DNA of 26,503 bases from Chthonomonadales bacterium (GCA_038217285.1 JBBQPO010000052.1:1-26503), one strand, 5' to 3'. Shown: positions 1,022 through 26,072, counted from the stretch's first letter. Made by a program: numbers and translations. Notes: generated from the letters alone by a model not told the origin.

Positions 1022-1047
1022 GTCGGCGGCACGGCTGAATCAAGTTT

Positions 1048-5675: not shown

Positions 5676-5713
5676 CGTCGCAGACTTCCTTCCGTTTCAC
5701 TGTCTCCATCTTC

Positions 5714-5757
5714 ATTATAACCAGACTCCCTGAGAACAGGTTGAGAAGCCTGTGAGA
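5714..5757 (-). promoter_or_regulatory. -10 box plus three TCTCA direct repeats at 11-bp period; candidate OmpR-family regulator binding site
   Basis: Plus strand TGAGA at 5731, 5742 and 5753; minus strand TATAAT at 5719-5714; no consensus -35. Confidence 0.7.
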
Positions 5758-5762
5758 GTTTT

Positions 5763-7106
5763 CTAAGGGAGAGAAGAGGCGAATGTCACCAGTACGCGCA
5801 CCCCGTCTTCGCTCTGATCCAGGGCGATTTGCCAGCCGTTAGCGGTGGCAATGGCCCGACAGATGGCGAGGCCAAGACCGTTGCCGCCGGTATCCGAGGT
5901 GCGCGCCTCGTCCGGGCGATAGAAAGGCTCGAACAGCGCCGTCGTGTCGAGGCGAGGCTGCGCAGGAAAGGCGTTGAAAAGCTCCAGGCAGGGCACGTCA
6001 CTGGGTGAGAGCAGACGGACGGTGATGCCCCCGCCAGCCGTGGCGTACTTGAGAGCGTTTTCGATCAGATTGCGAATCAGCATCTCCGCGTGCTGGGGGA
6101 ACGCCGCCACCTCGAACCCAAGCTTCAATTCCGAGGAGACGTGCAGATGACGACGGTCGATAAGCGGCTGAAACTGGGTTAGGATGCGCTCCGAAATCTC
6201 GGCAAGATCGACGGGCTCGCGGGGCAGACTGTCGGGGGTGGGTCGATCCAACTGGTTCAGGAGCAGCAGTCCCTGCACCAGCGCAGAAAGGCGCTGCGTT
6301 TGACGCGAGGCCTCTGCTGTCGCCGTTTTGTACTCGTCGCGGCTGCGTTCGCGGCTCAGAGCCACTTCCAGATGCCCGGAGAGGGCCTGCAATGGGGTGC
6401 GAAGCTCATGCGAGGCGGCCGCATAGAAACGTCCTCTCGCTTCGGCGGTCTTGCCGACACTGGTCAACAGCGCATTCAAGGTGGCGACGAGTTCGACCAC
6501 TTCGGCGTCCTGTGAGGGAGCCAGCAGGCGCTGATGCAGACTGTCGGTCACCGCTGCGCCCCGTGCCTGGTGCGAGAGCGAGTGGATCGGGGAGAGCGTC
6601 CGGCCCACGAGCCACCAGGCTCCGAACGCCGAGGCCAGCACAACACAGAGGCTCAGCACCAGCAGCACCACCGCCTCTCGTTTCAAGATCAGCTCCGATT
6701 TGCGCCAGTAGGTGCCGATCACAATGGTTTTCGCGCGGTAAGCCAGAGACCTGGTGCGCCAGCCGTCCTTTCGCCGATGCGGCCAGGAGGGCGCAGCGCT
6801 CTGCGATTTTCGGAGCACGTTGCCCTGCGCGTCCACCAGCAGCAGGGCGAGGCCTTCCATTTTCAGGCTATCGCCATTCTCTGCCAGAAAATCGTTGAAA
6901 CCGTGGCCACTCGTGATGTCCGCCAGTTCGTTTCTTATCCGCCGCGCCGCCGTATCCAATGTCGTCTCTGCAGATTGTACGGCCGTGTAGTGCAGGTAGA
7001 AAAGGAGTCCGCCTGCGATCAGGGCCATCAGGGCAGCGGTCTGCAGCGCAAAGGCGAGCGTCATGCGGGCGCGAATGGAGCCGTGCGCAGGCTTTTCAGA
7101 CGCCAT
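5763..7106 (-). CDS. Membrane sensor histidine kinase (2 TM, HAMP, HisKA, HATPase)
   Basis: H-box AASHELRTPL, N-box NLIENALKY, FEPFYR, G2 GGNGLGLAI; overlaps the response regulator gene. Confidence 0.93.
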   Translation of the reverse strand: MASEKPAHGSIRARMTLAFALQTAALMALIAGGLLFYLHYTAVQSAETTLDTAARRIRNELADITSGHGFNDFLAENGDSLKMEGLALLLVDAQGNVLRKSQSAAPSWPHRRKDGWRTRSLAYRAKTIVIGTYWRKSELILKREAVVLLVLSLCVVLASAFGAWWLVGRTLSPIHSLSHQARGAAVTDSLHQRLLAPSQDAEVVELVATLNALLTSVGKTAEARGRFYAAASHELRTPLQALSGHLEVALSRERSRDEYKTATAEASRQTQRLSALVQGLLLLNQLDRPTPDSLPREPVDLAEISERILTQFQPLIDRRHLHVSSELKLGFEVAAFPQHAEMLIRNLIENALKYATAGGGITVRLLSPSDVPCLELFNAFPAQPRLDTTALFEPFYRPDEARTSDTGGNGLGLAICRAIATANGWQIALDQSEDGVRVLVTFASSLP

Positions 7107-7773
7107 CTTCCACTCCCAGTCGGAACCCGACTCCGCGCACCGTATGGATGAGAGTCGGCGTCTGCCCTCTATCTATTTTGCCGCGCAGGTAGCTGATATA
7201 GACGTCGAGCACATTGTCACTGCCGCCGAAATCGTACTGCCAGACATGTTCGAGAATCATCGAACGCGTCAGCACCCTATCGACGTTCCGCATCAGATAC
7301 TCCAGCAGCGCGTATTCGGTAGCGGACAGAGAGACCGTTTTCCCGGCGCGAATGGCACGTCGTGAAGCCGGGTCGAGCGTCAGGTCAGCCACGCGCAGTA
7401 CCGTCGGCGCACTCACGGCGCGGCGCAGCAGCGCTCGGGCCCGCGCGAGCAGTTCCGCCAGTTGAAACGGCTTGACGATATAGTCGTCCGCGCCGCTATC
7501 CAGCCCGTCCACACGGTCCTGCAGGGTGTCTTTCGCGGTGATAATCAGAATCGGCGTCGAGATGTTGGCGCTGCGCAGGCGGCGGCAGACCTCCAGACCG
7601 TTCATTCCCGGCAGCATCACATCGAGCAGAATGAGATCGTAGCCGAGAGATCGGGCCCGCTCCAGCCCTGTCAGGCCGTCCGCCACACTCTCGACCGCAT
7701 ACCCGGCTTCGCTCAGCGCCTGCCCCAGAAATCGCGCCACGCTCTCATCGTCTTCGACGACCAGTACATTCAT
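7096..7773 (-). CDS. OmpR/PhoB family DNA-binding response regulator (CusR/CzcR/MprA-like)
   Basis: VLVVEDD, LILLDVMLP, GADDYIVKPF, NVLDVYISYLR, IHTVRGVGF. Confidence 0.95.
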   Translation of the reverse strand: MNVLVVEDDESVARFLGQALSEAGYAVESVADGLTGLERARSLGYDLILLDVMLPGMNGLEVCRRLRSANISTPILIITAKDTLQDRVDGLDSGADDYIVKPFQLAELLARARALLRRAVSAPTVLRVADLTLDPASRRAIRAGKTVSLSATEYALLEYLMRNVDRVLTRSMILEHVWQYDFGGSDNVLDVYISYLRGKIDRGQTPTLIHTVRGVGFRLGVEDGV

Positions 7774-8287: not shown

Positions 8288-8806
8288 CTAATCGACGCGC
8301 GGGGCGATGACGATGCGGCGGTCCGGCTCATCGCCTTCGCTGTAGGTCATGATGCCGGGCTCGTCGAGCAGAGCGTTGTGGATGATGCGGCGCTCGTGCG
8401 CGGGCAACGGCTCCAGTTCCGCCTCCTGGTTGCGTTCTCGCACCTCGCGGGCCAGTTCCCGAGCGCGTTCGATCAGCGTCGCAGCGCGGCGTGCCCTGTA
8501 GCCTTCGGCGTCCAGCATAAGCCGCACATCGGAGCTGACGCGGTGCGCCAGTACGGTGTTGCAGAGAAACTGCAGGGCATCCAGAGTCTGCCCCTGTCGG
8601 CCCAGAGTCTGCCGCACATTCTCCCCGACGATCTCGATCTGCAGATAGGGTTTTTGCGCGGAGCGTACAACCGCATGCGCTCCGAGTCCGCTGGCTGTGC
8701 ATAGCCCTTGCATAAAGGCCAGCGCCGCCTGCTGATCGGGATTCAGCGTCTCTTCCGGCACAACCGGGCTCTCTTCCACGTGCGCTTCCGTACTGGTGTC
8801 GCTCAT
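8288..8806 (-). CDS. jag: Jag/EloR/KhpB-like RNA-binding protein (KH + R3H), short form
   Basis: LGRQGQTLDALQFL KH motif; LDAEGYRARR; ERRIIHNAL R3H; TYSEGDEPDRRIVI; lies downstream of yidC. Confidence 0.9.
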   Translation of the reverse strand: MSDTSTEAHVEESPVVPEETLNPDQQAALAFMQGLCTASGLGAHAVVRSAQKPYLQIEIVGENVRQTLGRQGQTLDALQFLCNTVLAHRVSSDVRLMLDAEGYRARRAATLIERARELAREVRERNQEAELEPLPAHERRIIHNALLDEPGIMTYSEGDEPDRRIVIAPRVD

Positions 8807-8842
8807 AATGTTCTCTCCTTCTACTCGATCTCACATCTTGCG

Positions 8843-10111
8843 TCAGGGGCGCGGACGGCGTTTTTTGGGACGCGGGCCCGTGCTCGGCGGAATCTTCGGA
8901 GCCGTCTCCGTCCGGTTGAGGGAGCCGCTCGCTCCAGGCCTGTCGCGGTTCGACGTCTCTTTGGAAGACGGACCCGATGACGGCGCCGGAAGGATCTCTC
9001 CGGTGGCGAGACGCGCTTTGTTCGGCCTATAGACGAAATAGTACTGTTGCGCTGTCGAGATGATGTTGAGAATCAGCCAGTAGAATATGAATGCCGCCGA
9101 CCACTTGTACTGCATGAACATGAAGAACATCAGGCCGGTCGTCATCACGGCCATAGACTTCTGCTGCTGCGCCTGCGTGGGATCGGGCGAAGGCGTCAGG
9201 CGCATCGTAAAGTAGTTGCTGGCGGCATAGAGAACGAGCAGCGGAATATCGAATTTTCCCAGGTCGGTTCCCAGGATCGTCGGGTTCGCAAAGGAGAGGC
9301 GACTGCCGACCCACAAAAACTTCCCGTTGGCGAAATGGAACTCGTACAGTCGGATCGTGTTGTAGACCCAGATCATGAAGGGCAGTTGAATGACCATCGG
9401 CAGGCAACTGGCGAACGGGCTTACGCCGTGCTCTTTATAGACTTCCATCGTCTTCTGCTGAAGCAGTTGCGGCTCGTCTTTATACTTCTTCTGAACCTCT
9501 TTCATCACCGGCTGCAGCTTCTGCATCTCCCGCTGACTCTTATACATCTTCAGCGTGAGCGGGAAGGTGATGCCCTTGACGATGACGGCGATGAGGGCCA
9601 GCGCAAACCAGTAGCTGAAAGCGGGGATCCGACCCGTGGCCGCGACGATACTGTCCACCATCTTGTACTGAAACTTCTTGGAGTTAAGGCGATCAAGCTG
9701 ACCTTCGACTTCGGCCCGTCGACTCGGTGCCTGCTTGCCGCGAACGGTGTTGGGATAGTGCTCCATCAACTGCTTGAGGTCTTCACGCGCGAGGTTCAGC
9801 CCCTCGGTCTGCATTTCCACCACGGCTTCGGAGGGATGCTCCGACACAGCTCCGACGAATCGAGTGGACGTAAAGTCTTGATCACTCCAGAGGGCTTCGG
9901 CAGCCTTCTCCTGGTCTTTTTTACCATCGTTGGCATTCTTGATGGAGAGGTACTCTTCGTGCGCTTCGCGGGGCCTCTCCTTCTCAAGGGATTTAGCATC
10001 CTCGACGGTATTGGGATAGTTGTCGCGAATCGGACGCTGACAACCCGTCAGCCCGCCGATAAAAACGATTATTGTAAGAAGTAGTGCGATGGAACGCGAA
10101 GCGGATTTCAA
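8843..10111 (-). CDS. yidC: Membrane protein insertase YidC/Oxa1
   Basis: ITFPLT...MQKLQP...YKEHGVSPFASCLPMVIQLPF, FLWV, FIFYW motifs; N-terminal lipobox-like LTGC; synteny with rnpA-yidD-jag. Confidence 0.93.
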   Translation of the reverse strand: MKSASRSIALLLTIIVFIGGLTGCQRPIRDNYPNTVEDAKSLEKERPREAHEEYLSIKNANDGKKDQEKAAEALWSDQDFTSTRFVGAVSEHPSEAVVEMQTEGLNLAREDLKQLMEHYPNTVRGKQAPSRRAEVEGQLDRLNSKKFQYKMVDSIVAATGRIPAFSYWFALALIAVIVKGITFPLTLKMYKSQREMQKLQPVMKEVQKKYKDEPQLLQQKTMEVYKEHGVSPFASCLPMVIQLPFMIWVYNTIRLYEFHFANGKFLWVGSRLSFANPTILGTDLGKFDIPLLVLYAASNYFTMRLTPSPDPTQAQQQKSMAVMTTGLMFFMFMQYKWSAAFIFYWLILNIISTAQQYYFVYRPNKARLATGEILPAPSSGPSSKETSNRDRPGASGSLNRTETAPKIPPSTGPRPKKRRPRP

Positions 10112-11161: not shown

Positions 11162-13320
11162 CATTCGACGGTGAGGGTGTCCAGGTAGGCGCTGAAGTCG
11201 CGGAGGGCGGTTGCGGCCTGGGCGCGCAGGCGAACGGCTTCCTGGCGCAGTATGTCGATTTTGCTCTCCTGCGTGTCCAGTTCTCCGACGTAGCGTTTGT
11301 AGAGCGCGGAGTCCTGGGCCAGGGCCATCATGTTTTTGCGGATACGATCCTGGTCCGCGCCGATCGCCTGAAGGTCGGATTCACGGGCGGCGGCTTCCAT
11401 CTGTAGCTCTTCGACATGCCGGCGGCGGGTGAGGATCTCCTGCAGCGCCGCCAGAAGTTTGGGCGAAATCTCCTTACTTTTGGCGTAGCTTGCCAGTCGG
11501 CCCCTATCCCCGTCGAGTAGAGCCAGAGTTTCGGTCAGGGGGCGCTCCAGCACGACTTTCAGTGTCTCGGCCTTGCCGGGAGCGAGAGCGACCGCGAAGC
11601 GATAGAGCGCGGGAGTGCGCTCGGCAGGCTTGGCAGGCTGCACCAGGGTATAGGCGGCGTTGAAGGGATGCTCGATCAGCACATTGCGGGGCGTCGTCGC
11701 CTTCGATTTCAGGGTGTAGACGGTTTCGACTCGTTCCCGCCTCGCGATTACCAGGAGACGGCGCTTCAGGCTCAGGCCGGTGTCGATAATGGTGGTTTTG
11801 GGCGTCTGTCGCTCCCCTTCTACGGCCAGATCGACCGCGTAGGAGAGCAGGCGGGTGTCCCCGGGCGGAATATCCTCCATCCGGGCGTCCCCCGCGTAGA
11901 CACCGGCGTCGAAGAGGGTAACCGGGCCTCCTTTCAGGTGCAGGGCCGTGGTGTTATGCAGACGCAGAGCATTCAAAGGATATTTGGCGTCGGAGTCGGC
12001 GTTGTAGAGGGAGACCTTTTCCGCCTCGACATCCTGCGTCACGACGGGAATCAGCGCGGCCTGCTGGCGCGGGAGATTCACCGGAGTGCTGATCTTGTAC
12101 TCAAACAGCTCTCCTGCTTTCTGGCCCTCCGCCTGCGCCTTCACGGATTCGCGCAGATAGTCGACGGCAGCGCCCGACTCCGCCGCTGTGGTATCTACGG
12201 TGGGACCCGCCTCTCCTTTGTCTCCTGCAGCCCCGTTGCTGCGCCCGAACGACGCTCCCCCGCGTCCGCGCCCGCCTATGCCCCCTCCGCCGAAGCCGCC
12301 TCCAGTTCCCCCTCCGCCAAAGCCGCCTCCAGCGCCGCCTCCTGGATAGCCGCCTCCGCCAAAGCCGCTGGCCGGTCCGTTCGGGCCGAGCAGACTGCCG
12401 TCGTGGGTCTGCGGATAGGGCGAAGCGACGATGTCTGGCCCCACAACCGGGCGCGGTATATAGAGAGGCTGATAGAGATCCTGAATGAACGAAACAGGGC
12501 GACCCGATACCAGCGAAAGCCGTACATTTTGCCAGTCGTCGTCGGAGGTGTTCTCGACCATCGCCCACCCCTGCAGATAGGGCTTGCCGGGTTTGTCGGG
12601 GTTCGTGCCGCCGATCAGCAGACGATAGCTCATCTTCCAGAGCGGCGCTTCCGTGACATAACCGACGCGCACGTCCCGCTTGCCCTGCCCGGCGAAGTGC
12701 AGGGTCACCTGCCGCCGCTGTTCGTCCGAGCGCGTGGCGAGAGTGGCCAGTGCATCGTGAAACTCTTTGTTTAGCTGCGCATCCAGCAGGCGCACGGTGG
12801 TATCGGTATCGAGGCGGACGCTCATCAGCCCTGTTTCACCGAGCAGGTTCAGGATCGCGACGGTCGTGGGTTTGCCATCGACGCCCAGCACCTGGCGCGA
12901 CTCTACCCCGACGATCTGTCCGGTCAGGGCGGGCCGATTCGCCGCCTCGACCGTGACCCGTGCGCCGCGCAGTCGGTTCAGGATATCCTGCTGGCTCAGG
13001 TTCTGCGTCACATCGATGGCGAAGGACTGCAGCGTGTGGCTGATGGGATCGTGGGCGGCGTAGGTCGCGGGCTGCACCTGTCCCTGGCGATCGATGAGCA
13101 CCATCGACTTGAGGATGTCGTTGATCTGCGGGGCGCGGAAGAGCAGCGGCACGGTCGCATCGCCATCGACGACCCCGCCGCGCTCGGTATAGGAGACGCC
13201 GCTGGTAAAGAGCGTGATCCGCCGCACTGGCAGCGTGCTGGAGGGCGCGAGAGGAGCCTGTGCCAGCGCCGGAGCCGCCACGCACATCGCCGCAAATATC
13301 GAGAGTCTCTTTTTCAACAT
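11161..13320 (-). CDS. DUF4139-like secreted protein with central Gly-rich insert
   Basis: Signal peptide ([21 protein letters not shown]); [62 protein letters not shown] motifs typical of this family; C-terminal coiled coil. Confidence 0.8.
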
Positions 13321-13523
13321 TTTTTCTTCCGCTCGCTTTCCATCCTCAGGTTCTTTTGCATCCGTCGCTTCGCTCCCGCACGATCCCCATTATACCGAAT
13401 CCGTGCACACGCGGACCGAACGGCTGTCTGGCACATTAGACCTGGATAGAGGACAATACGTTACATGCGAGGCTGTACTGAAATCTGATTATTTTTTAAT
13501 TTAGAGGCTCTTCGTAATAACGC

Positions 13524-13552
13524 TTGACGTAAATCCGGAAAGACGCTATAAT
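13524..13552 (+). promoter_or_regulatory. Sigma70 promoter of the ATPase-HK-RR operon
   Basis: TTGACG (13524-13529), 17 bp spacer, TATAAT (13547-13552); AT-rich tract upstream; GGAG RBS at 13572-13575. Confidence 0.8.
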
Positions 13553-13582
13553 GCTCGCTAATATCAACTTTGGAGTTTCGCC

Positions 13583-15166
13583 GTGTTGAGAGATCCAGCC
13601 TGGTTTGAACGGCTCTGGAATAATGCAAAGAACGAGACCGTCCCCAATCCCGAAGGATCCAGTGGCGCTCTCATGCATGCGTTTGCCTCTGCTCTCGATG
13701 CCGACATCGTGGAGTACTCCCGTGAGGGCGAGGCCGCCATCTTCTTACTTGAACTGGGGGCATTGCCGTTCAAGGGTATGGGCCTCAACGTCGTCCTCGT
13801 TACCCACGCGCCTTCCGATGATGCCGATTCCGCCCGGATCGCGACCCTTCTCGCCGATTATCGCGAGGCCGTTCGGTCCATAGGACTGTGCATCCACGTC
13901 GTTCTCCAATCGGAGGAACCCGTCCGCAATCCGTACGTCCCCTCCTCGACCGACATCATCTACATGGCGCACGCGGATTTGGAGAGAATCTTTACGTCGC
14001 GCTTCCCCACCGGCGCGCTCTTTAACGTCATCAAGCGTTACATGCAACTGGAGCGCCTCAATCCATTCAATACGACGGAGGTCGCCCGGGGTTCCATGTT
14101 CGCAGGGCGCAAAAAAGAAGTGGAACAGCTTGTCAATGACCAATCGACGCACTTTCTGGTCATGGGCGCCCGACTTATCGGCAAGACGTCACTCATGCTC
14201 CGGGCGCGAGATCTCCTCTGCGCGGATAGAGAGGTGCGATCACGGGTATTCTATTTCGACTGTTCCACCTGGGGCGGCTATAAAGACTGTGTCGTCCGAC
14301 TGATTTCAAGGCTGGAACCTAAACGCGAGCGGCGCGCAGACATCAGTCTGCGCGAAGTGACGTTCATGCTCAGGCGTCTGAGCCATGACGGCAGGCGCCC
14401 TCTGCTGCTATTCTTCGACGAGTGCGATGGCCTGACAGTACGAGATTCGAGAACCGACTGGACCTTCATGCGACTCCTGGAGGAGGCCAGCGTCAGCCAA
14501 TGGGTTCGCCTGGTATTCGCCGGCTTCCGCGATGTGCAGGCGCTCCGGCAGAACTGGGGAGGCATCGTCGATTCACCGTTTCTCGGCGGGCTAAAAATGC
14601 TCAGCCTTGGCCCGCTTTCCACGGAGGAATCCGCGCGCCTGCTCTGTGATCCGTTGGTGGCCGCGGATATCGATATTCGGGATCAGCCCCTGGTCATCGA
14701 GCGCGTGTTGGCGCACTCGGCAGGCCAGCCGTTTATCCTCCAGTTCTACGGCGAACATCTCTACCGAATCGCCTCCGAACGTGACAGGCGGGAGCTGACG
14801 CTGATGGACGTGCAGAGCATCGAAGAAGGCGACGATTTGAGCGGGTTCCTGATGAACCACTTCATCTGGAACACCCAGCATGGCGCCTATACGGCAAGCG
14901 ACGAGCGCGCGTGCGTGCTCGCTTATGCGGGCCTGGCAGGTACCGAACGGTGGAGTCAGCAGGATTTCGAGACGCACTGTTCCGATCACGGTTATCCGCT
15001 GGATATGACGCAGGTGACCACAGCCCTTCAGAATCTCGTGCATGCGCAGATACTCAGCGTGGCCAGCCGCAAGTATGGTCTGGCATTCCCCCTGTTGCGC
15101 GATATACTCAACGATGCCTACCCCGATCTTGACGGCGCGCTCCGGCGGCTTCGGGAGGTAAAGTAG
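13583..15166 (+). CDS. STAND-like P-loop ATPase with uncharacterised N-terminal domain and C-terminal winged helix
   Basis: NPF...MFAGRKKEV entry motif; Walker A GARLIGKT (14165-14188); Walker B LLLFFDE (14402-14422); SAGQPFILQ GxP motif; C-terminal ALQNLVHAQIL...YGLAFPLL wHTH-like end. Confidence 0.88.
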   Translation: MLRDPAWFERLWNNAKNETVPNPEGSSGALMHAFASALDADIVEYSREGEAAIFLLELGALPFKGMGLNVVLVTHAPSDDADSARIATLLADYREAVRSIGLCIHVVLQSEEPVRNPYVPSSTDIIYMAHADLERIFTSRFPTGALFNVIKRYMQLERLNPFNTTEVARGSMFAGRKKEVEQLVNDQSTHFLVMGARLIGKTSLMLRARDLLCADREVRSRVFYFDCSTWGGYKDCVVRLISRLEPKRERRADISLREVTFMLRRLSHDGRRPLLLFFDECDGLTVRDSRTDWTFMRLLEEASVSQWVRLVFAGFRDVQALRQNWGGIVDSPFLGGLKMLSLGPLSTEESARLLCDPLVAADIDIRDQPLVIERVLAHSAGQPFILQFYGEHLYRIASERDRRELTLMDVQSIEEGDDLSGFLMNHFIWNTQHGAYTASDERACVLAYAGLAGTERWSQQDFETHCSDHGYPLDMTQVTTALQNLVHAQILSVASRKYGLAFPLLRDILNDAYPDLDGALRRLREVK

Positions 15167-18100
15167 TGCAGTTGGCATCTTACTATCGACAGATAGGCGA
15201 TAAACTGATCGTCGATCTTGTACGCGGACTGCAGGCTGGTACACATTACGCTCTGCTCGGCCCACGCCGGGGATCGAAGGCGTGGATTGTCGAGGCGTTG
15301 GTACTACGGGCGAATACCCTCGCGGCGGGTGATCGCCCGCATGTGGTCAAGTTACAGTGGCAGGCGCACCACGAAGCCAGTCATACCGGGTTCCTGAAAT
15401 ATCTCGCGGATTCTCTTGGCTTGGACGCTCCCGAGACGGCCCCCGACGCGCGCCTGTCAGGACAGGTCGCGGCGCTGATCGTGGATGCGCTCGGCATGGA
15501 TAAACGCCCCATCTGGCTGCTCATTCAGGACGTGCTTGGGTTTCCGAAATCGATTGCACGCGAACTGCTGGCCGCTCTGAACAGCCTCCACGAGCAGCTC
15601 AGCGATACAGACGAAGGCCGACGCCTCGGCGCCGTCGTCACCGGCAGTGCGGATTTCACCCCCCTGACGACCGGGCCTAACTCGCCCTATCGTCACGCGA
15701 AACTAATTCTGGTCAGCGGCCTCGACTACGAACACGCCCGTCATTTTTTCCTCGAACGCCGCGCCCGACTGCTCGGCGACCCGGCGAAGGCCGCTGTCTC
15801 CGAAGAGGTCTTCGGATGCCTGTATGAGGCCACCAATGGGAACGCCAACCTTCTGCAAGAACTTGTGATTGCACCGGCCCGGCATCCCTACTATCTCGCT
15901 CCAGACGGTTCCGCCGATGTCTACGGATCGCGGCTCGCCGCTGAGGGAATGATAGAGCACTTCATTCTGAACTTCATGCGGGACGATCAGTACAGCATCG
16001 AAATGGTGCGTGAGGCGGAGCGAGACGCCGAATCCTTCGACTTGCTTCTGCGCGTCCTCGAGGGTCCCGGTCGATTGACTTTGCCGGGCAGACCCCATGC
16101 TCTCGAAGTCTGCGGCCTCCTGGTGAAACAGACGAAAAGCGTCGTCACTTTCTCGTGTCCGATGATCGAGAATTTTGTCCGACGGACGGTCACACCCCGA
16201 CATATCGCGGATGTCTATGTGTCTCAGCGTCGGTGGGACAAAGCGGTGCCCGCGTATGAGTTCATGGCGTCCTTCCATGCATCGCTCAAGGATAGACCCG
16301 TCTCTGGACACGCGCAGTACCATCTGCGTGAATCGATCCTCGTCTGGAAAGACCAGATGATGGACGAAGCCCAGTGGGGTATAGCGCCGGTGGTTCGGCA
16401 CTTCCTGGATGGAATGCATCATCTCTTCTCCTTCGACCGCGGCGGCCTCTATGCACGGAATGGCTCGGGTTGGGTCGAGAGCGCTACGTTCGGATGTGAA
16501 CAGATGGCTCCTCCGCCGCCACAGGAGGAATCGGAAAGCGGTCCAGGTCTCACCAAATCGATCTCCGGGGATCAGCTCAGTATGATGCGCTTGATCGCCT
16601 CCTCCGGCAGCCTGCCGGAGTGGCCGGTCTGTTCTCTCTTCCTGCAGCGCGACCATGCGGGCCACGAGATCGACTCTGCCGAGCGCGCTATTCTCGACAA
16701 CTCGGTAGACCGGTTCTGTCACGCCTATAAGGCCGCAGAGGAGATCGAATACCGCCGCCGTATCGGGGAGCTCCGCGAACAGCACCTCAAGGTGATCGAG
16801 CGTGTCAATGAGGCCGTCTTGAATAAGCAGTTCGACCTCGGTCACGTCGTTCGCTGTGCGACGGATGCTCTTGTCGACGTGGCCGGCTATCGCCGTGTTC
16901 AGATCTGCCTCGTGAACGCGCGGCGAAATCGGATCCAGTCCGTGGCAAGCTGCCATAAGCCGGGCATCCTCGATTTTCGTGATCCTACAAACTATCCGCT
17001 GCGTGTGCCACGCGCGGACGTCCAGGCCTGGGTCGTCGCCAATAAGCAGATCGCCATCATCGACGAAGCCGCCGAATGGTACGGCAAAGAGTTCGACATC
17101 AATGTCTCCCAGTCGGTGGCTCTGGGCATGAAGGCTTTCACGGTGGTGCCGATGATCACAGGGGACGTGGTAATCGGCACAATCCATATCGAACGGGAGG
17201 ACAGGGAGCCTCCTGTCCAGATCGAGCAGGAGCTTTACCTGCTTCTGGCAGGGCATATCGCCGGTGTCTGCCGTCAGGCGCAGCGTCTGGAGATGCTTCA
17301 AAACGTGGTGGAAGCCTCGGATGATGAGATCCGGATCGCCGATCCGACGTTCCGCCTCGTCTATCTGAACCGTGCCGCTCATGACCGTGAACCGCACTCT
17401 CCGACAGCAGGCTGGCAAGACAAGAACGTCCGCTATGATTGGCGCAGGCACGCCTGGGCCTCCAACGGTCCTCAAAGGGGAGAGGCGCTGGAGAAGGCCC
17501 GTCTAGGCGAAACGGCCCGCTATTTTTTGACATCGGACGCCCCGACCGCGCCCCAGGCGCAAGCTCTGGACATAAGCGGTATCGTGGATTTTCGCGGTGG
17601 TCTCACGTCGCCGCTTGTGGCGGACGGCTTGATCGGATTCGTCGAGCATATCCGCGATATGACGCCGCTCTATGAAATCGTGGCGGAAATTACCGAGTGG
17701 CTGAAGGTGGATAATCTGAAAGAGGCGGCACAGACCATTGTAGAGACGGCCGTGCGCCGCGACTACGACTGGTGCCGGATCTACCTGTATCACGATCATC
17801 CGCGTGAGGGGCGCTACCTGGAGAGCTTCGCGGAGAGCGGGTTACAGGTACCGGAGAATATCGATGCCTTTCGCTCGGGAGGCATCCGGGAGTACCCTGA
17901 TAGTGACCCGCTGCCTCATGGCTGGCATGTGATCCTCGAAGCGAAGGGCCCTACGATCTATGAGATCCCCAGGAACCGGGCACCGAAGCGGAAGCAGATC
18001 GTCCGCGCACCCAATCTCGAAGGGGCTCCCCGCTTCTATACCACGGCGCGCGACTGCCAACGCAAACTCGAGAATGACAACATACGACGGTGGATAGAGG

Positions 18101-18945
18101 CCCCTTTGCTTGTCGGAGATCGTGTGGTAGGCGTCATGACGCTGCCCATGCCCAGGGCACCCCTGACCCCGAGCAAATGGGTGCTGCTGGGCCTGTTCGT
18201 CCAGTGCGCCGCGTTGACGCTTGACAGCGTGATTCGCGCCGAGGAACGAGCCACGCCGGATCGCCAGACAGCAGCAGCGATGATATGGATCTTTCATCAG
18301 TTTCGGCAGCCACTGTTCGCATGCCGCGGTTGGCTGCGTCTGCTCGGCCCCACCGACCAGGATCCCTCCCAGAATGAAACCATTAGTGCTATCAAAGAGG
18401 CGATCACAAGGATGGAACGCATTTCGGCGGACTATCTGCACTGGATACGAGAGTACGTGCCGATAATTACAGGGGGCGACATCGTCGATGCCATGAAACA
18501 GACATGCAAGCGAGCGGGTGTCTATCGCGAAAATGTGTTGCCAGAGGTGGTTTCCGACATCAATGCCTACTTTGTCTACACGGACCTCACCGAAATTCAA
18601 AGAGCGGTCGATGAGTTGATCTGGAACGCCATCAGGGCTGGTGCGACGAACATCACTGTGCGCCTGAACACGAAGTCGAATTCCAACGAAGTAACTCTGC
18701 TCGTTGAAGACAACGGCCCGGGAATACCGCAGGAAAAAAGGCAGCGTCTCTTCGAACCTGCGCCCAGTAAATCCAGCGGAGGGACGGGATTTGGGCTTGC
18801 TACCGTCAGAAAACACCTCGGCCTCCTGGAAGGATTGATCGATTTCGAAGAACGAAGTGAGGGCGGCGCATGCTTTCGTTTGCGTATTCCCCTCTCGCCG
18901 GCAGAACCCATAGGGCATCGAAAGGAGAACTCTTATGAGCAATAG
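15166..18945 (+). CDS. Cytoplasmic multidomain histidine kinase: degenerate STAND-like ATPase, GAF/PAS/GAF, HisKA, HATPase
   Basis: N-terminal GPRRGSKA (degenerate Walker A) and LLIQD (degenerate Walker B); GAF ~16830-17280 (VVPMITGDVVIGTIHIE); PAS-like (IRIADPTFRLVYLNRAA); GAF ~17710-18225 (EAPLLVGDRVVGVMTL); H-box HQFRQPL (His1044); ELIWNAIRA, VEDNGPGI, LFEP, GGTGFGLA; no TM helix seen. Confidence 0.88.
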   Translation: MQLASYYRQIGDKLIVDLVRGLQAGTHYALLGPRRGSKAWIVEALVLRANTLAAGDRPHVVKLQWQAHHEASHTGFLKYLADSLGLDAPETAPDARLSGQVAALIVDALGMDKRPIWLLIQDVLGFPKSIARELLAALNSLHEQLSDTDEGRRLGAVVTGSADFTPLTTGPNSPYRHAKLILVSGLDYEHARHFFLERRARLLGDPAKAAVSEEVFGCLYEATNGNANLLQELVIAPARHPYYLAPDGSADVYGSRLAAEGMIEHFILNFMRDDQYSIEMVREAERDAESFDLLLRVLEGPGRLTLPGRPHALEVCGLLVKQTKSVVTFSCPMIENFVRRTVTPRHIADVYVSQRRWDKAVPAYEFMASFHASLKDRPVSGHAQYHLRESILVWKDQMMDEAQWGIAPVVRHFLDGMHHLFSFDRGGLYARNGSGWVESATFGCEQMAPPPPQEESESGPGLTKSISGDQLSMMRLIASSGSLPEWPVCSLFLQRDHAGHEIDSAERAILDNSVDRFCHAYKAAEEIEYRRRIGELREQHLKVIERVNEAVLNKQFDLGHVVRCATDALVDVAGYRRVQICLVNARRNRIQSVASCHKPGILDFRDPTNYPLRVPRADVQAWVVANKQIAIIDEAAEWYGKEFDINVSQSVALGMKAFTVVPMITGDVVIGTIHIEREDREPPVQIEQELYLLLAGHIAGVCRQAQRLEMLQNVVEASDDEIRIADPTFRLVYLNRAAHDREPHSPTAGWQDKNVRYDWRRHAWASNGPQRGEALEKARLGETARYFLTSDAPTAPQAQALDISGIVDFRGGLTSPLVADGLIGFVEHIRDMTPLYEIVAEITEWLKVDNLKEAAQTIVETAVRRDYDWCRIYLYHDHPREGRYLESFAESGLQVPENIDAFRSGGIREYPDSDPLPHGWHVILEAKGPTIYEIPRNRAPKRKQIVRAPNLEGAPRFYTTARDCQRKLENDNIRRWIEAPLLVGDRVVGVMTLPMPRAPLTPSKWVLLGLFVQCAALTLDSVIRAEERATPDRQTAAAMIWIFHQFRQPLFACRGWLRLLGPTDQDPSQNETISAIKEAITRMERISADYLHWIREYVPIITGGDIVDAMKQTCKRAGVYRENVLPEVVSDINAYFVYTDLTEIQRAVDELIWNAIRAGATNITVRLNTKSNSNEVTLLVEDNGPGIPQEKRQRLFEPAPSKSSGGTGFGLATVRKHLGLLEGLIDFEERSEGGACFRLRIPLSPAEPIGHRKENSYEQ

Positions 18946-19462
18946 CCTTGGAATCCTGATCGCAGAAGATGAAGAAAACACCATAATCTACCAGACTTAC
19001 AAACGCATGGGCTTCGATGTTGTGGGTCATCAAATGCCATCTGATGCGCTCGATTGTGTCAGGGAACGACGTGGCAGCCTGGATGTCGGTATTATCGACT
19101 TATGGATGAACTGGCCGGGCCAGGGGAAGCTCGATAAGGAGGCCGGACTTGTGCTTCTGAAGAAAATCAAGTCGGAGATCGACCCTGATCTCGGTGTGGT
19201 GGTTCTCACAGGGCACGGCTCGGAGCCGGAAGAAGACTGTCGCAAAGCCGGGGCATCGGCCTTCATTCTCAAGGCGACCACAGAGACATGGGATCTGCTA
19301 GACGTGGCGGTGGCGAAAGCAGCCATCGAATCGCTCCAGAAACGGCTTACGACCCTCTCCGGGCGTCCGGCGAACCTATCGGAGAATGCGTTTCGAGATC
19401 AACTTGAGGAGCGTATGGCTCAGGCGAAAGCCTTCGCGCAAAAGCTGAATATACCGACCTGA
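18935..19462 (+). CDS. Response regulator, receiver domain with short helical C-terminal tail
   Basis: ILIAEDE, GIIDLWM (Asp55), VVVLTGHG, AFILKA; AGGAG RBS; 11-nt overlap with the kinase gene. Confidence 0.9.
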   Translation: MSNSLGILIAEDEENTIIYQTYKRMGFDVVGHQMPSDALDCVRERRGSLDVGIIDLWMNWPGQGKLDKEAGLVLLKKIKSEIDPDLGVVVLTGHGSEPEEDCRKAGASAFILKATTETWDLLDVAVAKAAIESLQKRLTTLSGRPANLSENAFRDQLEERMAQAKAFAQKLNIPT

Positions 19463-19655
19463 ACGTCGCCGCATCCGAAATCCAGGCACGGATCGGATAC
19501 GCGACACAGGAGATCCGCCACCCCGACAGTTTCCGGCGGAGCAAAAAATGAGGAAGGATAACCGTCGGCGTCCATTGAAGCTAGATCGTAACGATATAGC
19601 AAGCCCCGTCGATCACGAAGGCGTGAGTGGCAGGGCAGGGGACGAAAGGTCACTC

Positions 19656-21038
19656 ATGAAATTTGACGAAAAATCGGTCACCTCGCGACGGCAGTTCCTC
19701 AAAACTACCGGAGGCGTGGTCGCCGCATCGGCTCTGACCGGAATCTATCCGTCCGCCGTCCACGCGGCAGGAAGCGACCTGATCCAGGTAGCGCTGGTGG
19801 GATGTGGCGGACGCGGCAGCGGGGCCGCTATGAACGCTCTGGCCACCACCAGTGGTCCCATCAAGCTCGTCGCCATGGCCGACGCCTTCCCCGACCGTCT
19901 CGCGAGCAGCTACGCAGCCCTCAATCAGGCGGCCGGGAAGCAGGTGGAGGTGCCGGAGGATCGCCGCTTTATCGGCTTCGACGCCTACAAGAAGGCGATG
20001 GACCATCTCAAGCCGGGCGACATTGTGATCCTGACGACTCCGCCGGCATTCCGGTGGGTGCATTTCACGTATGCCATCCAAAAGGGACTCAACGTCTTCA
20101 TGGAGAAGCCGGTGACGGTGGACGGCCCGACCAGCAAGCGGATGCTGAAGCTTGCGGACGAGGCCCATGCAAAAAACCTCAAGGTCGGCGTCGGGCTCAT
20201 GTCCCGCCACTCCCGAGCGCTTCAGGAGCTGCATGAACGCATCCGTAACGGGGAGATCGGTGAGATCCTCATGATGCGCGGTTACCGTATGCACGGCCCC
20301 GCCGCCTCTTTCAACTCTCCGCCGAAGCCGCCCGGCATCACCGATGTGGAGTACCAGATACGCCGGTTCCATAGCTTCCTGTGGGCCAGCGGCGGCAGCT
20401 TCAGCGACTTCTACATCCACCTCATCGACCACGTCTGTTGGATGAAGAACGCCTGGCCGATCAAGGCTCAGGCGCTGGGCGGCCGCCACTACCGCCAGGA
20501 TGTCGATGGCACTCCGTTCGTCGATCAGAACTTAGACACCTATGCTGTGGAGTACACCTTCGCGGATGGCAGCAAGTATTTCTTCGACGGGCGCTGTATG
20601 AACGGCGCCGCAGGCATCTATTCGAGTCACGTCCATGGGACCAAGGGCGTGGCCATTGCCTCCGCCGCCAACGACTGCGGAACGCCCTCCGCCATCTATA
20701 AGGGCCAGAATGAAACGCCGGCGAACCTGGTCTGGCAGTCTAAGGACACGAGCAACCCCTATCAGAACGAGTGGGACGAGCTGGTTGATGCCATCCGCAA
20801 CAACAAGCCCTACAACGAGGTCAAACGCGGCGTCGAGGCGAGCGTGGTCACCAGTATGGGCCGTATGGCGGCGCACACCGGCCAGGAGATCAGCTTTGAG
20901 GACATGCTCAACTGCGAGCATGAGTTCGCCCCCGGCCTCGACAAACTGACGATGAACTCTCCGGGTCCGCTGCCCGCCGACGCCAAAAACCGCTATCCCG
21001 TGCCCATGCCCGGAATCACCATCAAACGCGAGTACTGA
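19656..21038 (+). CDS. Tat-exported Gfo/Idh/MocA family oxidoreductase
   Basis: SRRQFLK twin-arginine signal; VALVGCGGRGSG Rossmann motif; VFMEKPV. ATG at 19656 with GAAAGG upstream is preferred over 19548. Confidence 0.92.
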   Translation: MKFDEKSVTSRRQFLKTTGGVVAASALTGIYPSAVHAAGSDLIQVALVGCGGRGSGAAMNALATTSGPIKLVAMADAFPDRLASSYAALNQAAGKQVEVPEDRRFIGFDAYKKAMDHLKPGDIVILTTPPAFRWVHFTYAIQKGLNVFMEKPVTVDGPTSKRMLKLADEAHAKNLKVGVGLMSRHSRALQELHERIRNGEIGEILMMRGYRMHGPAASFNSPPKPPGITDVEYQIRRFHSFLWASGGSFSDFYIHLIDHVCWMKNAWPIKAQALGGRHYRQDVDGTPFVDQNLDTYAVEYTFADGSKYFFDGRCMNGAAGIYSSHVHGTKGVAIASAANDCGTPSAIYKGQNETPANLVWQSKDTSNPYQNEWDELVDAIRNNKPYNEVKRGVEASVVTSMGRMAAHTGQEISFEDMLNCEHEFAPGLDKLTMNSPGPLPADAKNRYPVPMPGITIKREY

Positions 21039-22958: not shown

Positions 22959-23208
22959 AATTTGTGCTTCCTTCGTTGAATACCGGATCAGCCCCGTCTC
23001 TTCCTTCGGGGATACCCACGAAGTTTACCCTGTTCTCGGTCGTGCGGAAACATTCCGACTTTTGCGTGGTCATAGATCCAGGCGGCTTCTCGCGCTGTGA
23101 TCCCGCCTGTTTGTCCATAGCTTTCAGTTCCGACCGGTGACGTCAGGAGGTTCAGACGCCGCTCGTAGAGAAATAAAAGCGTACAATAGACCAGGGAGCG
23201 AGACAGGC

Positions 23209-26064
23209 ATGGGGTCGTACAGAAACCTTTTCCGGATGGCGGGGATATGGGGGCTGGTGTTCGGGGTCCTGACGGTGGGAGCCGCACAATCGCCCGAGAA
23301 TAAGACAACGGCTGCCACTCCGGAGGCGCTGGCATTCTTTGAGACGAAGATTCGCCCGGTGCTGGCGGAGAAGTGTCTCTCCTGTCATGGGGAGAAGAGT
23401 CAGTCCGCAGGCCTGCGCCTGGATTCCCGCATCGCCTTGCTGAAAGGCGGCGACCGAGGCGCGGTCATCGACCTGACCAGTCCGGAAAAGAGCCGACTGT
23501 TGGAGGCCCTTCTCTACACAGGCTCCGTGAAGATGCCGCCGTCCGGCAAGCTGCCCGCGCAGGTCGTGGCAGACTTTACCGCCTGGATGAAGATGGGGGC
23601 TCCGTGGCCTGCGGGCGCAGGCACGGCGCCGCACACAAAGAGCATGGCGGAGCGCGTGGCCGAAGCTCGCAGCCACCTCTGGTCGCTCCAGACTGTGCGC
23701 AAACCCACGTTGCCGAAGGTCAAAAACGTCGCCTGGGTGCGCTCCCCGATAGACCGACTGGTGCTCGCGAAACTCGAAGCGAAAGGGCTGTCGCCTGCCC
23801 CACCCGCCTCCCGCCTCACCCTCCTCCGCCGCGCCACCTACGATCTCATCGGGCTGTCACCGACGCCGGCGGAGATCGACGCTTTCGTCTCCGATAAGTC
23901 TCCCAACGCTTTTGAGAAGGTCGCCGATCGGCTGCTGGCCTCCCCTCTCTATGGCGAGCGCTGGGGCAGGCACTGGCTCGATGTCGCCCGCTATTCGGAT
24001 ACCCTGGGCTACCTCGTCGGCAACGTCGGCGACCCCGGCCGGATCTACCCCTACGCCTACACGTATCGGGACTATGTCGTCCGGGCCTTCAATGCGGACA
24101 AGCCCTACAACCAGTTCATCCGGGAGCAGTTGGCCGCCGACCTGATCCCTCTGCAGGACCCGCGCGATCAGGCGGCACTAGGATTCCTCACCGTTGGCAA
24201 CCGCTATCTGGGCAACGGCCAGGAGATCATCGACGATCGTATCGACGTGGTGACCCGCGGCCTGCAGGCCATGACTGTGGGCTGCGCCCGCTGCCATGAT
24301 CACAAGTTCGACCCCATCCCTGCCGCCGACTACTATTCGCTCTACGGCGTCTTCAACAGCATTCATGAGCCCCCGGAGCTGCCCCAGATCGGAGAGCCTG
24401 CCGACCATAAAGCGTATGAGACGTTTCTGGCGAAATTCGACCCCCTGGCGCAGAAACGGGCCCAACTTCTGAAAGACAAAAAGACGGAAGAGGCCAATAA
24501 GATAGGCGAGCAGATCACTCTGCTCGTTCTGAACGACCCTGGGGCGCCACCGCGCGCGATGGTCGTCCAGGACAACCCCACCCCGGACGAGCCGCATATC
24601 CTTCTGCGCGGCAACCCCGGCACGCCCGGCGCTCCTGTGAAGCGGCAGTACCTGCAGGCGGTTCTGGGCGACGCTCGCCAACCCTTTACCAGAGGCAGCG
24701 GTCGACTGGAACTGGCGGATGCCATCGCCTCCCCCGACAACCCGCTCACGGCGCGCGTCTTCGTGAACCGGGTCTGGATGCACCATTTCGGCAAGCCGCT
24801 GGTCAATACGCCCAGTGACTTCGGGACGCGTGGAGAGCCGCCGACCCAGCCGCAACTGCTGGACTACCTGGCCGCCTCCTTTATGGAAAACGGATGGTCC
24901 GTCAAGCGCCTGCACCGGCTTATCCTGCTCTCCAGCGTCTATCAGCAATCCTGCGATCCGGCCCCGATGACCGCAAAGCGGGATCCGGAAAACCGTCTGC
25001 TTGGACACATGAACCGGCAGCGCCTGGACTTCGAGCCCCTGCGCGATACGCTCCTGCAGCTCTCCGGAAGCCTGGATACAACGGTCGGAGGCCGCCCGGT
25101 GCAGGCGCTGCTCGGCGTCAATAGACGCCGCACTATCTACGCCTTTGTGGACCGGCAGGACCTGCCCGGCCTGCTCCGGACCTTCGACTTCGCGGACCCA
25201 GGCGCTCATGCGCCCCAGCGCAGTGTGACCACCGTGCCCCAGCAGGCGCTCTTCCTGATGAACAGTCCGTTCGTGCTTCAGCAGGTGCGCAGCCTGCTCA
25301 CACGCCCGGAGGTCGCATCGAAATCCGCTCCGGCCGAACGTGTGCGCGCCCTGTTCCGACAGGTCTATGGGCGCGCTCCGACCGCGCTGGAACTCACCCG
25401 TAGCCTGACCTTCCTGAGCGGTTGGCAGAACCAGCGCACCGAGGCTCCGACGCCGGCAGCAGCCTGGCAGAACGGGTACGGCGAGGTGGACCCGATCACG
25501 CGGCGCGTCAAGAGCTTCACCCGCCTGCCGCACTTCACCGGAACCGCCTGGCAGGGCGGGCCTCAGCTTCCGGACCCGAAACTCGGCTGGGTGACCCTGC
25601 GCGCAGACGGCGGGCATCCCGGCGACAGTCAGCACTCCGCCATACGGCGCTGGACCGCGCCCTACCCGATGACGGTCAACATTCAGGGTCGCCTGAACCA
25701 CCCTTCGCCGGACGGCGACGGCGTGGAGGCGATGATCGTCTCCAGTCGATCCGGCCCGCTCGGAGGCTGGGTCGCGCGCAACTCGGCGGTGGATGTCACG
25801 CTGAAGGGCGTCTCGGTGATTCGCGGGGAGACACTCGATTTCGTCCTCTCCAGTCGTGCGAACGTCAACTCCGACAGTTTTTCCTGGGCGCCCACCCTGG
25901 AAGTCACCGCCGCGCCGACTGCGGTGAACGGTGTGCAGAGGCTCTGGGATGCGGCGGCGGACTTTGCCGGCCCCGTCTCCACGGCCCCACACGAACCGAT
26001 GACCGCCTGGGAGGTCTACACCCAGGCCCTGCTCCTGACCAACGAATTCCTGTTTATCGACTGA
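23209..26064 (+). CDS. Planctomycete cytochrome c and PSD1 (DUF1549/DUF1553) domain protein
   Basis: Signal peptide; FFETKIRPVLAEKCLSCH; YGERWGRHWLDVARYSDT; GCARCHDHKFDPI; NPLTARVFVNRVWMHHFG; TTVPQQALFLMNS; LLLTNEFLFID. ATG at 23209 with GGGAG upstream is preferred over GTG at 23137. Confidence 0.92.
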   Translation: MGSYRNLFRMAGIWGLVFGVLTVGAAQSPENKTTAATPEALAFFETKIRPVLAEKCLSCHGEKSQSAGLRLDSRIALLKGGDRGAVIDLTSPEKSRLLEALLYTGSVKMPPSGKLPAQVVADFTAWMKMGAPWPAGAGTAPHTKSMAERVAEARSHLWSLQTVRKPTLPKVKNVAWVRSPIDRLVLAKLEAKGLSPAPPASRLTLLRRATYDLIGLSPTPAEIDAFVSDKSPNAFEKVADRLLASPLYGERWGRHWLDVARYSDTLGYLVGNVGDPGRIYPYAYTYRDYVVRAFNADKPYNQFIREQLAADLIPLQDPRDQAALGFLTVGNRYLGNGQEIIDDRIDVVTRGLQAMTVGCARCHDHKFDPIPAADYYSLYGVFNSIHEPPELPQIGEPADHKAYETFLAKFDPLAQKRAQLLKDKKTEEANKIGEQITLLVLNDPGAPPRAMVVQDNPTPDEPHILLRGNPGTPGAPVKRQYLQAVLGDARQPFTRGSGRLELADAIASPDNPLTARVFVNRVWMHHFGKPLVNTPSDFGTRGEPPTQPQLLDYLAASFMENGWSVKRLHRLILLSSVYQQSCDPAPMTAKRDPENRLLGHMNRQRLDFEPLRDTLLQLSGSLDTTVGGRPVQALLGVNRRRTIYAFVDRQDLPGLLRTFDFADPGAHAPQRSVTTVPQQALFLMNSPFVLQQVRSLLTRPEVASKSAPAERVRALFRQVYGRAPTALELTRSLTFLSGWQNQRTEAPTPAAAWQNGYGEVDPITRRVKSFTRLPHFTGTAWQGGPQLPDPKLGWVTLRADGGHPGDSQHSAIRRWTAPYPMTVNIQGRLNHPSPDGDGVEAMIVSSRSGPLGGWVARNSAVDVTLKGVSVIRGETLDFVLSSRANVNSDSFSWAPTLEVTAAPTAVNGVQRLWDAAADFAGPVSTAPHEPMTAWEVYTQALLLTNEFLFID

Positions 26065-26072
26065 GGCAAACC

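Follow-up and report, generated by a model that had tools for sequence, protein, structure and literature searches.

The window analyzed here is a stretch of 26,503 bases from a Chthonomonadales bacterium (GCA_038217285.1, JBBQPO010000052.1) that forms one whole contig of a 6.2-Mb genome bin (459 contigs, 95% complete), and it carries three tightly packed, co-directional genes at 13583-19462 on the plus strand (listing and translation of open reading frames, ORFs). These genes encode a predicted STAND-type ATPase, a histidine kinase headed by a degenerate copy of that ATPase, and a receiver protein. We favor, with moderate confidence, the view that this trio is the core of a conserved cytoplasmic two-component module that is gated by an ATPase and receives its input through a pair of STAND-type ATPase paralogues. 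Base 15166 belongs both to the TAG stop codon of gene 1 and to the GTG start codon of gene 2, genes 2 and 3 overlap by 11 nt, and the three genes are translationally coupled:

13583-15166 (+): gene 1, a 527-residue protein predicted to be a STAND-type P-loop ATPase (P0001; ORF listing, Pfam, AlphaFold2 model, and fold search)
15166-18945 (+): gene 2, a 1259-residue cytoplasmic sensor histidine kinase (P0002; ORF listing, Pfam, NCBIfam, and alignment)
18935-19462 (+): gene 3, a 175-residue receiver-only response regulator with a helical tail of ~50 residues (P0003; Pfam and pocket residues)

Judged from its AlphaFold2 model (predicted local distance difference test score of 82.5) and its motifs, the product of gene 1 is a STAND/NLR-type ATPase with the fold of a nucleotide-binding domain (NBD) followed by a helical and a winged-helix domain and with the full set of catalytic motifs. 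Comparison of the model to 48,161 PDB representatives returned 2qen (Z 22.3), 2fna (20.8), 9h2l (20.3), and 9qlv (19.0) as best matches, and the alignments to 2qen, 2fna, and two plant NLRs extend over 301-322 residues. In Pfam, gene 1 matches nSTAND1 (PF20703) with a marginal score of 28.4 bits against a cut-off of 27.1, besides a match to AAA_22, and precomputed nSTAND1 matches are found in 4 of 6 other members of the gene 1 family. A word-indexed search recovered 7 gene 1 proteins (37-66% identity, all 520-547 residues long) and 4 proteins with the gene 2 N-terminus. Walker A residues G195 and G200-K201-T202-S203, both anchor positions of the GxP motif (G381 and P383), and Arg316 following the fourth strand are invariant in 7/7 family members, as are the 2 Walker motifs. 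Both motifs are listed here, followed by the domain in front of them:

14165-14191 (+): Walker A motif of gene 1, G-A-R-x-I-G-K-T-S, residues 195-203 (invariant in 7/7)
14402-14422 (+): Walker B motif of gene 1, residues 274-280, including F277-F278-D279-E280 (invariant in 7/7)
13583-14077 (+): N-terminal alpha/beta domain of gene 1, approximately residues 1-165 (conserved blocks in the family alignment)

In gene 2, the N-terminal part is a genuine paralogue of gene 1 that has degenerated but kept the fold:

15166-16215 (+): pseudo-ATPase module of gene 2 with NBD, helical, and winged-helix parts, residues 1-350 (hhalign, AlphaFold2, fold search, and motif census)

Two simple comparisons would have been compatible with a different explanation, namely that the genes are chance neighbors without a functional link and that the likeness of gene 1 to gene 2 is that of any generic P-loop fold: BLASTP detects a weak P-loop match alone (E 0.15), and hhalign with small alignments assigns a probability of 45%. 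However, hhalign with deep alignments (16 members of the gene 1 family compared to residues 1-460 of gene 2-family proteins at least 900 residues long) raises this value to 99.2% with an E-value of 9.3e-20 over 305 collinear columns that join residues 178-514 of gene 1 to residues 16-343 of gene 2. The model of the gene 2 N-terminus (score of 76.5) matches 2qen (Z 16.6), 9h2l (15.6), 2fna (15.4), and 9qlv (15.4), so that the top 4 entries are identical for both proteins, and CED-4, Cdc6/ORC, MalT, and Avs appear further down both lists (VIA and Foldseek). A chance association is also at odds with the joint occurrence of both genes in the same genomes and with their adjacency in 2 distantly related clades (see below) as well as with the overlap of their start and stop codons, and we consider it very improbable.

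Degeneration of the gene 2 head concerns the catalytic residues. Lys38 of Walker A is kept, Ala39 replaces the subsequent Ser/Thr, Gln121 takes the place of the first Walker B aspartate, and the GxP motif reads G225-x-A with loss of its proline. Among 119 gene 2-family sequences, the Walker A lysine is present in 111, a Ser/Thr after this lysine in 25, and the GxP proline in 22, and the 8 commonest residues at the first Walker B position include none that is acidic. The name pseudo-ATPase is well founded as a description of catalytic motif loss, and the head may well be inactive. Prediction of a complex between residues 1-440 of gene 2 and gene 1 scored 0.26 against a mark of 0.32, which is uninformative either way.

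We then turned to the conservation of the trio. The genome collection contains 6 gene 1 loci in 5 bins, and all of these close relatives are Planctomycetota. A gene 2 homologue (27-35% identity across its full length) directly follows gene 1 in 5/5 loci with downstream DNA, and each of these loci continues with a receiver ORF behind gene 2 (confirmed by Pfam in 4). The profile of the gene 2 N-terminus matches 5 of 401 Planctomycetota genomes, the window's own included, and strong matches of the gene 1 profile (E 1e-38 or better) occur in exactly those 5 genomes; weak, partial P-loop matches of gene 1 (E 1e-9 to 1e-5) occur in 13 further Planctomycetota genomes. Three other genomes of the same genus (85-98% complete) yielded neither of the two genes. 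The trio is adjacent in genome G309, while genome G223 carries gene 1 (L027, G223:C113) and gene 2 (L026, G223:C192) on separate contigs with unrelated neighbors. Both genes are retained in G223 though unlinked, which argues for a functional tie over hitchhiking. The window, L002, L006, and G309 have the core trio alone. As side observations, a gene for an RRM-type RNA-binding protein follows the ATPase gene at G223:C113 (L027), and the kinase homologue at L005:1095-4988 is interrupted into ORFs of 175 and 1105 residues.

Beyond these close relatives, an hmmsearch with the pseudo-ATPase profile across 1.84 billion cluster representatives gave 464 matches at E<=1e-3, 273 at E<=1e-10, and 67 at E<=1e-30. 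Among the 150 matches listed of these 464, 120 are at least 900 residues long (mostly ~1200-1300 residues) and carry the domain at the N-terminus. Sampled distant family members end in HATPase_c in 7 of 7 cases and contain GAF domains in 6 of 7. The family members with a named source belong to Planctomycetota, Acidobacteriota (Pyrinomonadaceae among them), and one bin labeled Nitrospiraceae, and their source annotations comprise only "sensor histidine kinase", "PAS/GAF domain-containing protein", "ATP-binding protein", or "hypothetical protein". The Nitrospiraceae-labeled protein (P0014) is a full-length kinase relative with 36% identity in the N-terminal domain, and its phylum label could reflect either transfer between phyla or a binning error.

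A distant clade of 12 metagenome loci, retrieved with a 4-sequence alignment, shows the same gene order although its domain is only ~22% identical to that of the window; 2 of these loci, L023 and L024, hardly differ from each other. Overall, the co-occurrence of genes 1 and 2 extends across phyla. A gene 1-family ORF (E 1e-24 to 1e-41) lies directly upstream of the kinase in 11/11 loci with upstream DNA, often with a 4-nt overlap of both ORFs, and the canonical GxxxxGK[ST] motif is present in 10/10 of the distant gene 1 homologues. The nSTAND1 scores of distant-clade homologues (22.3 and 17.2) fall under the cut-off, and one of the distant homologues has a faint match to ATPase_2 (PF01637). 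A receiver-like ORF of ~223 residues is found downstream of the kinase in 9 of 10 loci with downstream DNA; the exception is L021 (4514-6787), where the kinase stops at 757 residues and unrelated ORFs take the place of the receiver. The L014 locus (L014:5657-11513), which is 76% identical to that of L013, looks decayed, with an ATPase ORF of 246 residues, a kinase split into at least 3 ORFs, and a receiver split into 2.

Downstream of its pseudo-ATPase head, gene 2 continues into a block of predicted sensor domains and a histidine kinase core:

16216-16842 (+): TPR-like helical region, then a linker of low confidence and a coiled one that leads into GAF domain 1, residues 351-559 (model secondary structure; conserved in relatives)
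16843-17265 (+): GAF domain 1, residues 560-700 (Pfam GAF_3 and GAF_2)
17278-17715 (+): PAS-like stretch, residues 705-850 (suggested solely by relatives, of which P0067 and P0137 match PAS_8 in the corresponding place)
17716-18213 (+): GAF domain 2, residues 851-1016 (Pfam GAF, E 2e-12)
18295-18438 (+): DHp/HisKA domain, residues 1044-1091, with the codon of the phospho-accepting His1044 at 18295-18297 (Pfam and NCBIfam; H-box histidine in 5/5 homologues)
18583-18897 (+): HATPase_c catalytic domain, residues 1140-1244, with N, G1, F, and G2 boxes (Pfam, E 2.5e-21)

The HisKA score of 24.3 bits is under the cut-off of 26.9, NCBIfam kinase equivalog models align over residues 1042-1246, and kinase-box residues N1154, D1182, G1184, G1186, F1196, G1206, G1208, and G1210 are invariant in 5/5 homologues. 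Residues 1-540 of gene 2 have no Pfam match at the cut-off, and neither the stretches 351-540 and 701-850 nor the receiver tail have a significant one. The most hydrophobic 19-residue window of gene 2 (Kyte-Doolittle 1.85, residues 1005-1023) lies mostly inside GAF domain 2 and contains D, Q, S, and T, so that no transmembrane helix is indicated. Gene 3 matches Response_reg of Pfam with 32.7 bits and has all pocket residues, D12, D55 (codon at 19097-19099), T92, and K113, of which D12 and D55 are invariant in 12/12 aligned receivers. Its tail of ~50 residues has no effector domain recognizable by Pfam, and it is the single receiver gene in the operon. An insertion of ~10 residues lies straight after the phospho-accepting aspartate (D-x-W-M..., residues 55-72, window 19097-19150), which is kept in the 4 closest homologues and different in the distant clade. 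By their motifs, genes 2 and 3 carry the full sets of a two-component kinase and receiver, and phosphotransfer between them is predicted.

An earlier, sequence-only reading of this locus had described overlapping ORFs, intact Walker A, Walker B, and GxP motifs in gene 1, a decayed version of the same fold at the start of gene 2, an intact kinase without transmembrane helix, and an intact receiver. All of these descriptions hold up in the analyses reported above, and the 3 genes, which that reading had treated as one system, do co-occur and adjoin in relatives. The GAF/PAS-like/GAF block of gene 2 and the N-terminal domain of ~165 residues on gene 1 come in addition.

How could such a module work? 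By analogy to ORC, clamp loaders, and paired NLRs, we propose that the pseudo-ATPase head of the kinase would join the gene 1 ATPase in a nucleotide-dependent hetero-oligomer. In combination with a small ligand bound to the GAF/PAS domains, binding or hydrolysis of ATP by gene 1 might then set the arrangement of the kinase dimer and control autophosphorylation of His1044, from where the phosphoryl group would move to Asp55 of the receiver, and the receiver would act via protein-protein contacts. Such an output is suggested because the receiver tail is conserved and because genes for sigma factors, partner proteins, and peptidases recur in relatives. The likely targets in these relatives would be encoded in the same operon, i.e., an extracytoplasmic function (ECF) sigma factor with a partner of 205-250 residues and an HExxH zincin peptidase, and release of the sigma factor upon contact with the receiver is one, admittedly speculative, possibility. 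Since the window has the core trio alone, its target would probably be encoded elsewhere.

Several points weigh against this interpretation. The binding of gene 1 to gene 2 and an effect of the ATPase on the kinase go beyond the domain assignments, and we infer both. The window contains none of the sigma factor, partner, or peptidase genes of its relatives. Gene 1 ends past the winged-helix domain at residue 527 and has neither a fused effector nor the C-terminal repeat sensor that is typical of STAND proteins, which obscures how a signal would enter. Its conserved N-terminal domain could be assigned to no fold or family: residues 1-165 have zero Pfam matches at E<=5, the best E-value in a PDB sequence search was 0.56, the best score in the atlas was 0.86 and led to no family, and fold searches with the whole protein are dominated by the ATPase part. 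Finally, the pseudo-ATPase head may still bind nucleotide because the GK of its Walker A motif is retained.

The N-terminal domain of gene 1 also lends itself to a reading without any gating in which gene 1 would be a downstream target or scaffold. The kinase-receiver pair could, for instance, regulate the ATPase so that this domain provides the actual output, and the kinase would use its pseudo-ATPase head merely for docking. Strong conservation of the domain would fit this idea, and so would its partial sharing with the distant clade, where profile matches begin at positions 10-49 in 5/11 ORFs; moreover, gene 1 has no recognizable sensor domain while the kinase has 3, and co-occurrence is silent on the direction of signaling. 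On the other hand, the gene order of ATPase, kinase, and receiver fits a conventional output from kinase to receiver, as does the conserved tail that the receiver-only regulator carries, and known STAND systems use the ATPase as a switch rather than as a target. We regard gene 1 as target or scaffold as quite unlikely and continue with the ATPase-gated module as our preferred explanation.

The genes that accompany the core trio in relatives differ between clades. In the distant clade, a protein of ~410 residues with a weak DUF6055 match follows the receiver in 9/10 loci, and all 8 of those examined have an HExxH motif, which makes them candidate cytoplasmic peptidases; DUF6055 has been tied to MEROPS family M106 in PMC11241649. 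Upstream of gene 1, this clade has an ECF-type sigma factor in 7 loci and a partner protein of ~205 residues in 8. Among planctomycete relatives, the receiver is followed in L003, L004, and L005 by a protein of ~200 residues, an ECF sigma factor, and a protein of ~240 residues (both non-sigma proteins are unassigned), and in G223 a sigma-like ORF lies upstream of gene 2 in divergent orientation. Altogether, an ECF sigma factor is part of the cluster in L003, L004, L005, L015, L016, L018, L020, L021, L023, L024, and L026. No ECF sigma factor was detected in the window by a sigma profile built from these loci, and no sigma-factor domain is present in its Pfam-scanned ORFs. PF19527 (DUF6055-type) and the 2 unassigned L004 proteins were not found in the window's 95%-complete genome with single-protein queries, which are weak.

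Different accessory genes are present at L013, where a complete Gabija pair (GajA, E 1e-210; GajB, E 8e-205) lies directly ahead of the module, in the upstream position that elsewhere belongs to the sigma factor and its partner. In L013 and L014, the DUF6055-like HExxH protein carries an N-terminal TIR fusion and is followed by a solo TIR protein:

L013:1320-5260: Gabija pair
L013:11535-13760: TIR-zincin fusion and solo TIR protein

We considered whether this TIR/Gabija context marks the whole family as a defense system and rejected this notion given that Gabija is found in 1/12 and TIR in 2/12 distant loci and that those 2 loci are closely related.

A role of the trio itself in anti-phage defense or biological conflict deserves separate consideration. 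In this scenario, the STAND pair would sense an invader cue in an NLR-like manner and activate an effector through the His-Asp relay. This effector would be the zincin peptidase or TIR protein in relatives and, in the case of the window, something that acts in trans or has been lost. Evidence in favor includes the NLR/Avs-like fold with the marginal match to nSTAND1, a domain that was defined in counter-invader systems (PMC8195603), and the very patchy distribution across 5/401 Planctomycetota genomes and 0/3 genomes of the same genus. It further includes the HExxH peptidases of the distant clade, their TIR fusions, and the Gabija pair, as well as the precedent of Detocs that kinase-receiver signaling can serve defense (PMC11728103). 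Conversely, PADLOC-DB 2.0.0, which includes Avs and NLR-type models, has 0 families that match genes 1 or 2 and matches gene 3 with nothing but JAB at noise level (E 0.014), though coverage of Detocs in this release was unchecked, and it returned nothing for the ATPase, receiver, partner, or peptidase of the distant clade. The window's trio is surrounded by housekeeping and transport genes and not by a defense island, no effector gene follows it in the operon, the genome yielded no DUF6055-type gene, Gabija adjoins just 1 of 12 distant loci, and the commonest extra genes are ECF sigma factors with their partners, which, like GAF/PAS-type sensors, are typical of physiological signaling. The hints at conflict concern distant relatives only, and the sigma linkage points at least as much to transcriptional signaling as to immunity. 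We view a conflict system as unlikely.

These results bear on the proposal of the sequence-only reading that the locus is an NLR-like intracellular sensor with phosphorelay output. Its structural part stands with the STAND/NLR fold and the two-component genes, whereas the implied role in conflict finds no support at this locus: the kinase also carries GAF/PAS-like/GAF sensors, relatives show sigma linkage, and the co-location with defense islands that it had suggested looking for is not seen here. A broader proposal would be that the trio is the minimal core of an NLR-like surveillance pathway in at least Planctomycetota and Acidobacteriota, in which a heteromer of active and degenerate STAND proteins senses an intracellular cue and reports it by phosphorelay rather than by direct killing, driving an ECF sigma program or a zincin/TIR effector. 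We hold this to be rather doubtful; if true, it would amount to an inducible, transcription-coupled form of bacterial innate immunity.

The sequence upstream of gene 1 contains plausible signals for expression of the trio:

13524-13552 (+): sigma-70-like promoter with TTGACG at 13524-13529, a 17-nt spacer, and TATAAT at 13547-13552 (11/12 consensus positions)
13572-13575 (+): GGAG ribosome-binding site, 7 nt ahead of the GTG start codon of gene 1 at 13583 (read directly)

A near-consensus sigma70 promoter had been noted here before, and the TTGACG-17-TATAAT site is indeed the best match within 13000-20000. Yet promoter-like sites are no commoner in this region than in shuffled sequences (3 compared to 2.6 +/- 1.6), so that the promoter is merely plausible, and the sigma-70 consensus may not reflect planctomycete usage. 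No terminator-like site separates the 3 genes apart from weak intragenic matches. Their G+C content (window 13001-19000) is 0.56-0.60 per kb and slightly lower than that of most of the contig (0.61-0.68), a difference that, alongside the patchy distribution, could point to horizontal acquisition. In a search of sequencing runs, the stretch was present in one DNA run of a sediment metagenome, which may be the source sample, and in no RNA run.

The trio is flanked by a gene for a DUF4139 protein upstream and a gene for a GFO/IDH/MocA oxidoreductase with a twin-arginine translocation (Tat) signal downstream, neither of which is conserved beside the trio in any relative. Pfam matches on the remaining contig include RND efflux, a second kinase-regulator pair, YidC, Jag/KhpB, and an ABC exporter. 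An ordinary efflux cluster on the minus strand (657-7773) comprises an ArsR-type regulator (657-983), an AcrB-type RND pump (1048-4095), a membrane-fusion protein (4092-5675), a histidine kinase (5763-7106), and an OmpR-type regulator (7096-7773). At 8288-10111 on the same strand follow Jag/KhpB (R3H and KH domains) and the YidC insertase, a common housekeeping pair, and a planctomycete-typical PSCyt1/PSCyt2/PSD1 protein of 975 residues is encoded at 23137-26501 together with a DUF1501 protein whose gene is cut off by the end of the contig. In terms of gene content, this pair identifies the bin as that of a planctomycete.

Two-component kinases are usually seen as gated by membrane or PAS/GAF-type sensors, and STAND/NLR ATPases as acting via fused death or DNA-binding domains. 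The locus described here defines a family that joins both worlds by pairing a seemingly working ATPase with a kinase that bears an apparently disabled copy of it. Should the ATPase indeed gate the kinase, phosphorelays would have a new input principle, and the logic of "active plus degenerate paralogue" that ORC, clamp loaders, and paired plant NLRs follow would have a bacterial case. Accessory genes that vary between loci (ECF sigma factor with partner, zincin peptidase, and TIR) make the output directly testable and could show how NLR-like sensing became coupled to gene regulation as opposed to cell death.

Among known proteins, the archaeal Walker-type ATPases PAB2304 (2qen) and SSO1545 (2fna) are the best match to the whole NBD-helical-winged-helix unit, both for gene 1 (322 residues with 2qen) and for the gene 2 head. 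These archaeal proteins share 15-19% identity and stand alone without link to a histidine kinase, and gene 1 differs from them by its additional N-terminal domain. Plant NLR resistosomes, CED-4/Apaf-1, Avs, and MalT have the three-domain nucleotide switch and GxP motif in common with gene 1, and the proposed nucleotide-dependent oligomerization that would activate an attached output follows the same logic as in these NLR/STAND switches. Unlike them, gene 1 has no C-terminal LRR, TPR, or WD40 sensor and no fused nuclease, pore, or helix-turn-helix output, and the histidine kinase that serves as output domain belongs to a degenerate paralogue, the product of the neighboring gene downstream.

Fungal group X hybrid kinases, of which CHK1 of Candida is an example, and cyanobacterial HstK-type kinases also place GAF domains and further N-terminal modules before a histidine kinase in a single cytoplasmic protein, and they contain an AAA/STAND-like ATPase stretch as well. 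For CHK1, the published abstract names S_TKc and GAF domains. A difference to gene 2 is the Ser/Thr kinase domain of these proteins and, for the fungal ones, the receiver fused to them. We know of no separately encoded active ATPase paralogue beside CHK1/HstK-type kinases and, likewise, of no STAND ATPase in ECF sigma cascades. Control of ECF sigma factors by two-component or partner-switch mechanisms, as in PhyR-NepR-EcfG and CseBC-SigE, resembles the operons of relatives that contain a sigma factor and a small partner, and ECF groups linked to two-component systems are recognized in PMC7826278. In contrast to these cascades, the gene 3 receiver has no sigma-like domain, and the window has no linked sigma factor.

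The Detocs defense system resembles the trio in gene number, and one of its receiver proteins carries an enzymatic effector. In the available part of PMC11728103, Detocs (DtcA kinase, DtcB buffer, and DtcC effector regulator) is a three-gene kinase-receiver unit outside classical transcription control, with 2 receiver proteins and no STAND ATPase mentioned, whereas the trio of the window has one receiver and is equipped with pseudo-ATPase and GAF/PAS inputs. Surveys of conflict systems by the Aravind group include receiver domains but no histidine kinases among the effectors in the accessible sections of PMC8195603 and PMC7159879. The literature searched contains no description of an active STAND ATPase paired with a histidine kinase headed by a pseudo-STAND domain, in line with the remark of the sequence-only reading that no characterized system with this architecture was known to it, though the supplement of PMC7826278 on ECF neighborhoods might mention a sigma-linked version. 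Compared to all of these systems, the trio seems to consist of familiar parts that are brought together in a widely conserved combination with a previously undescribed wiring.

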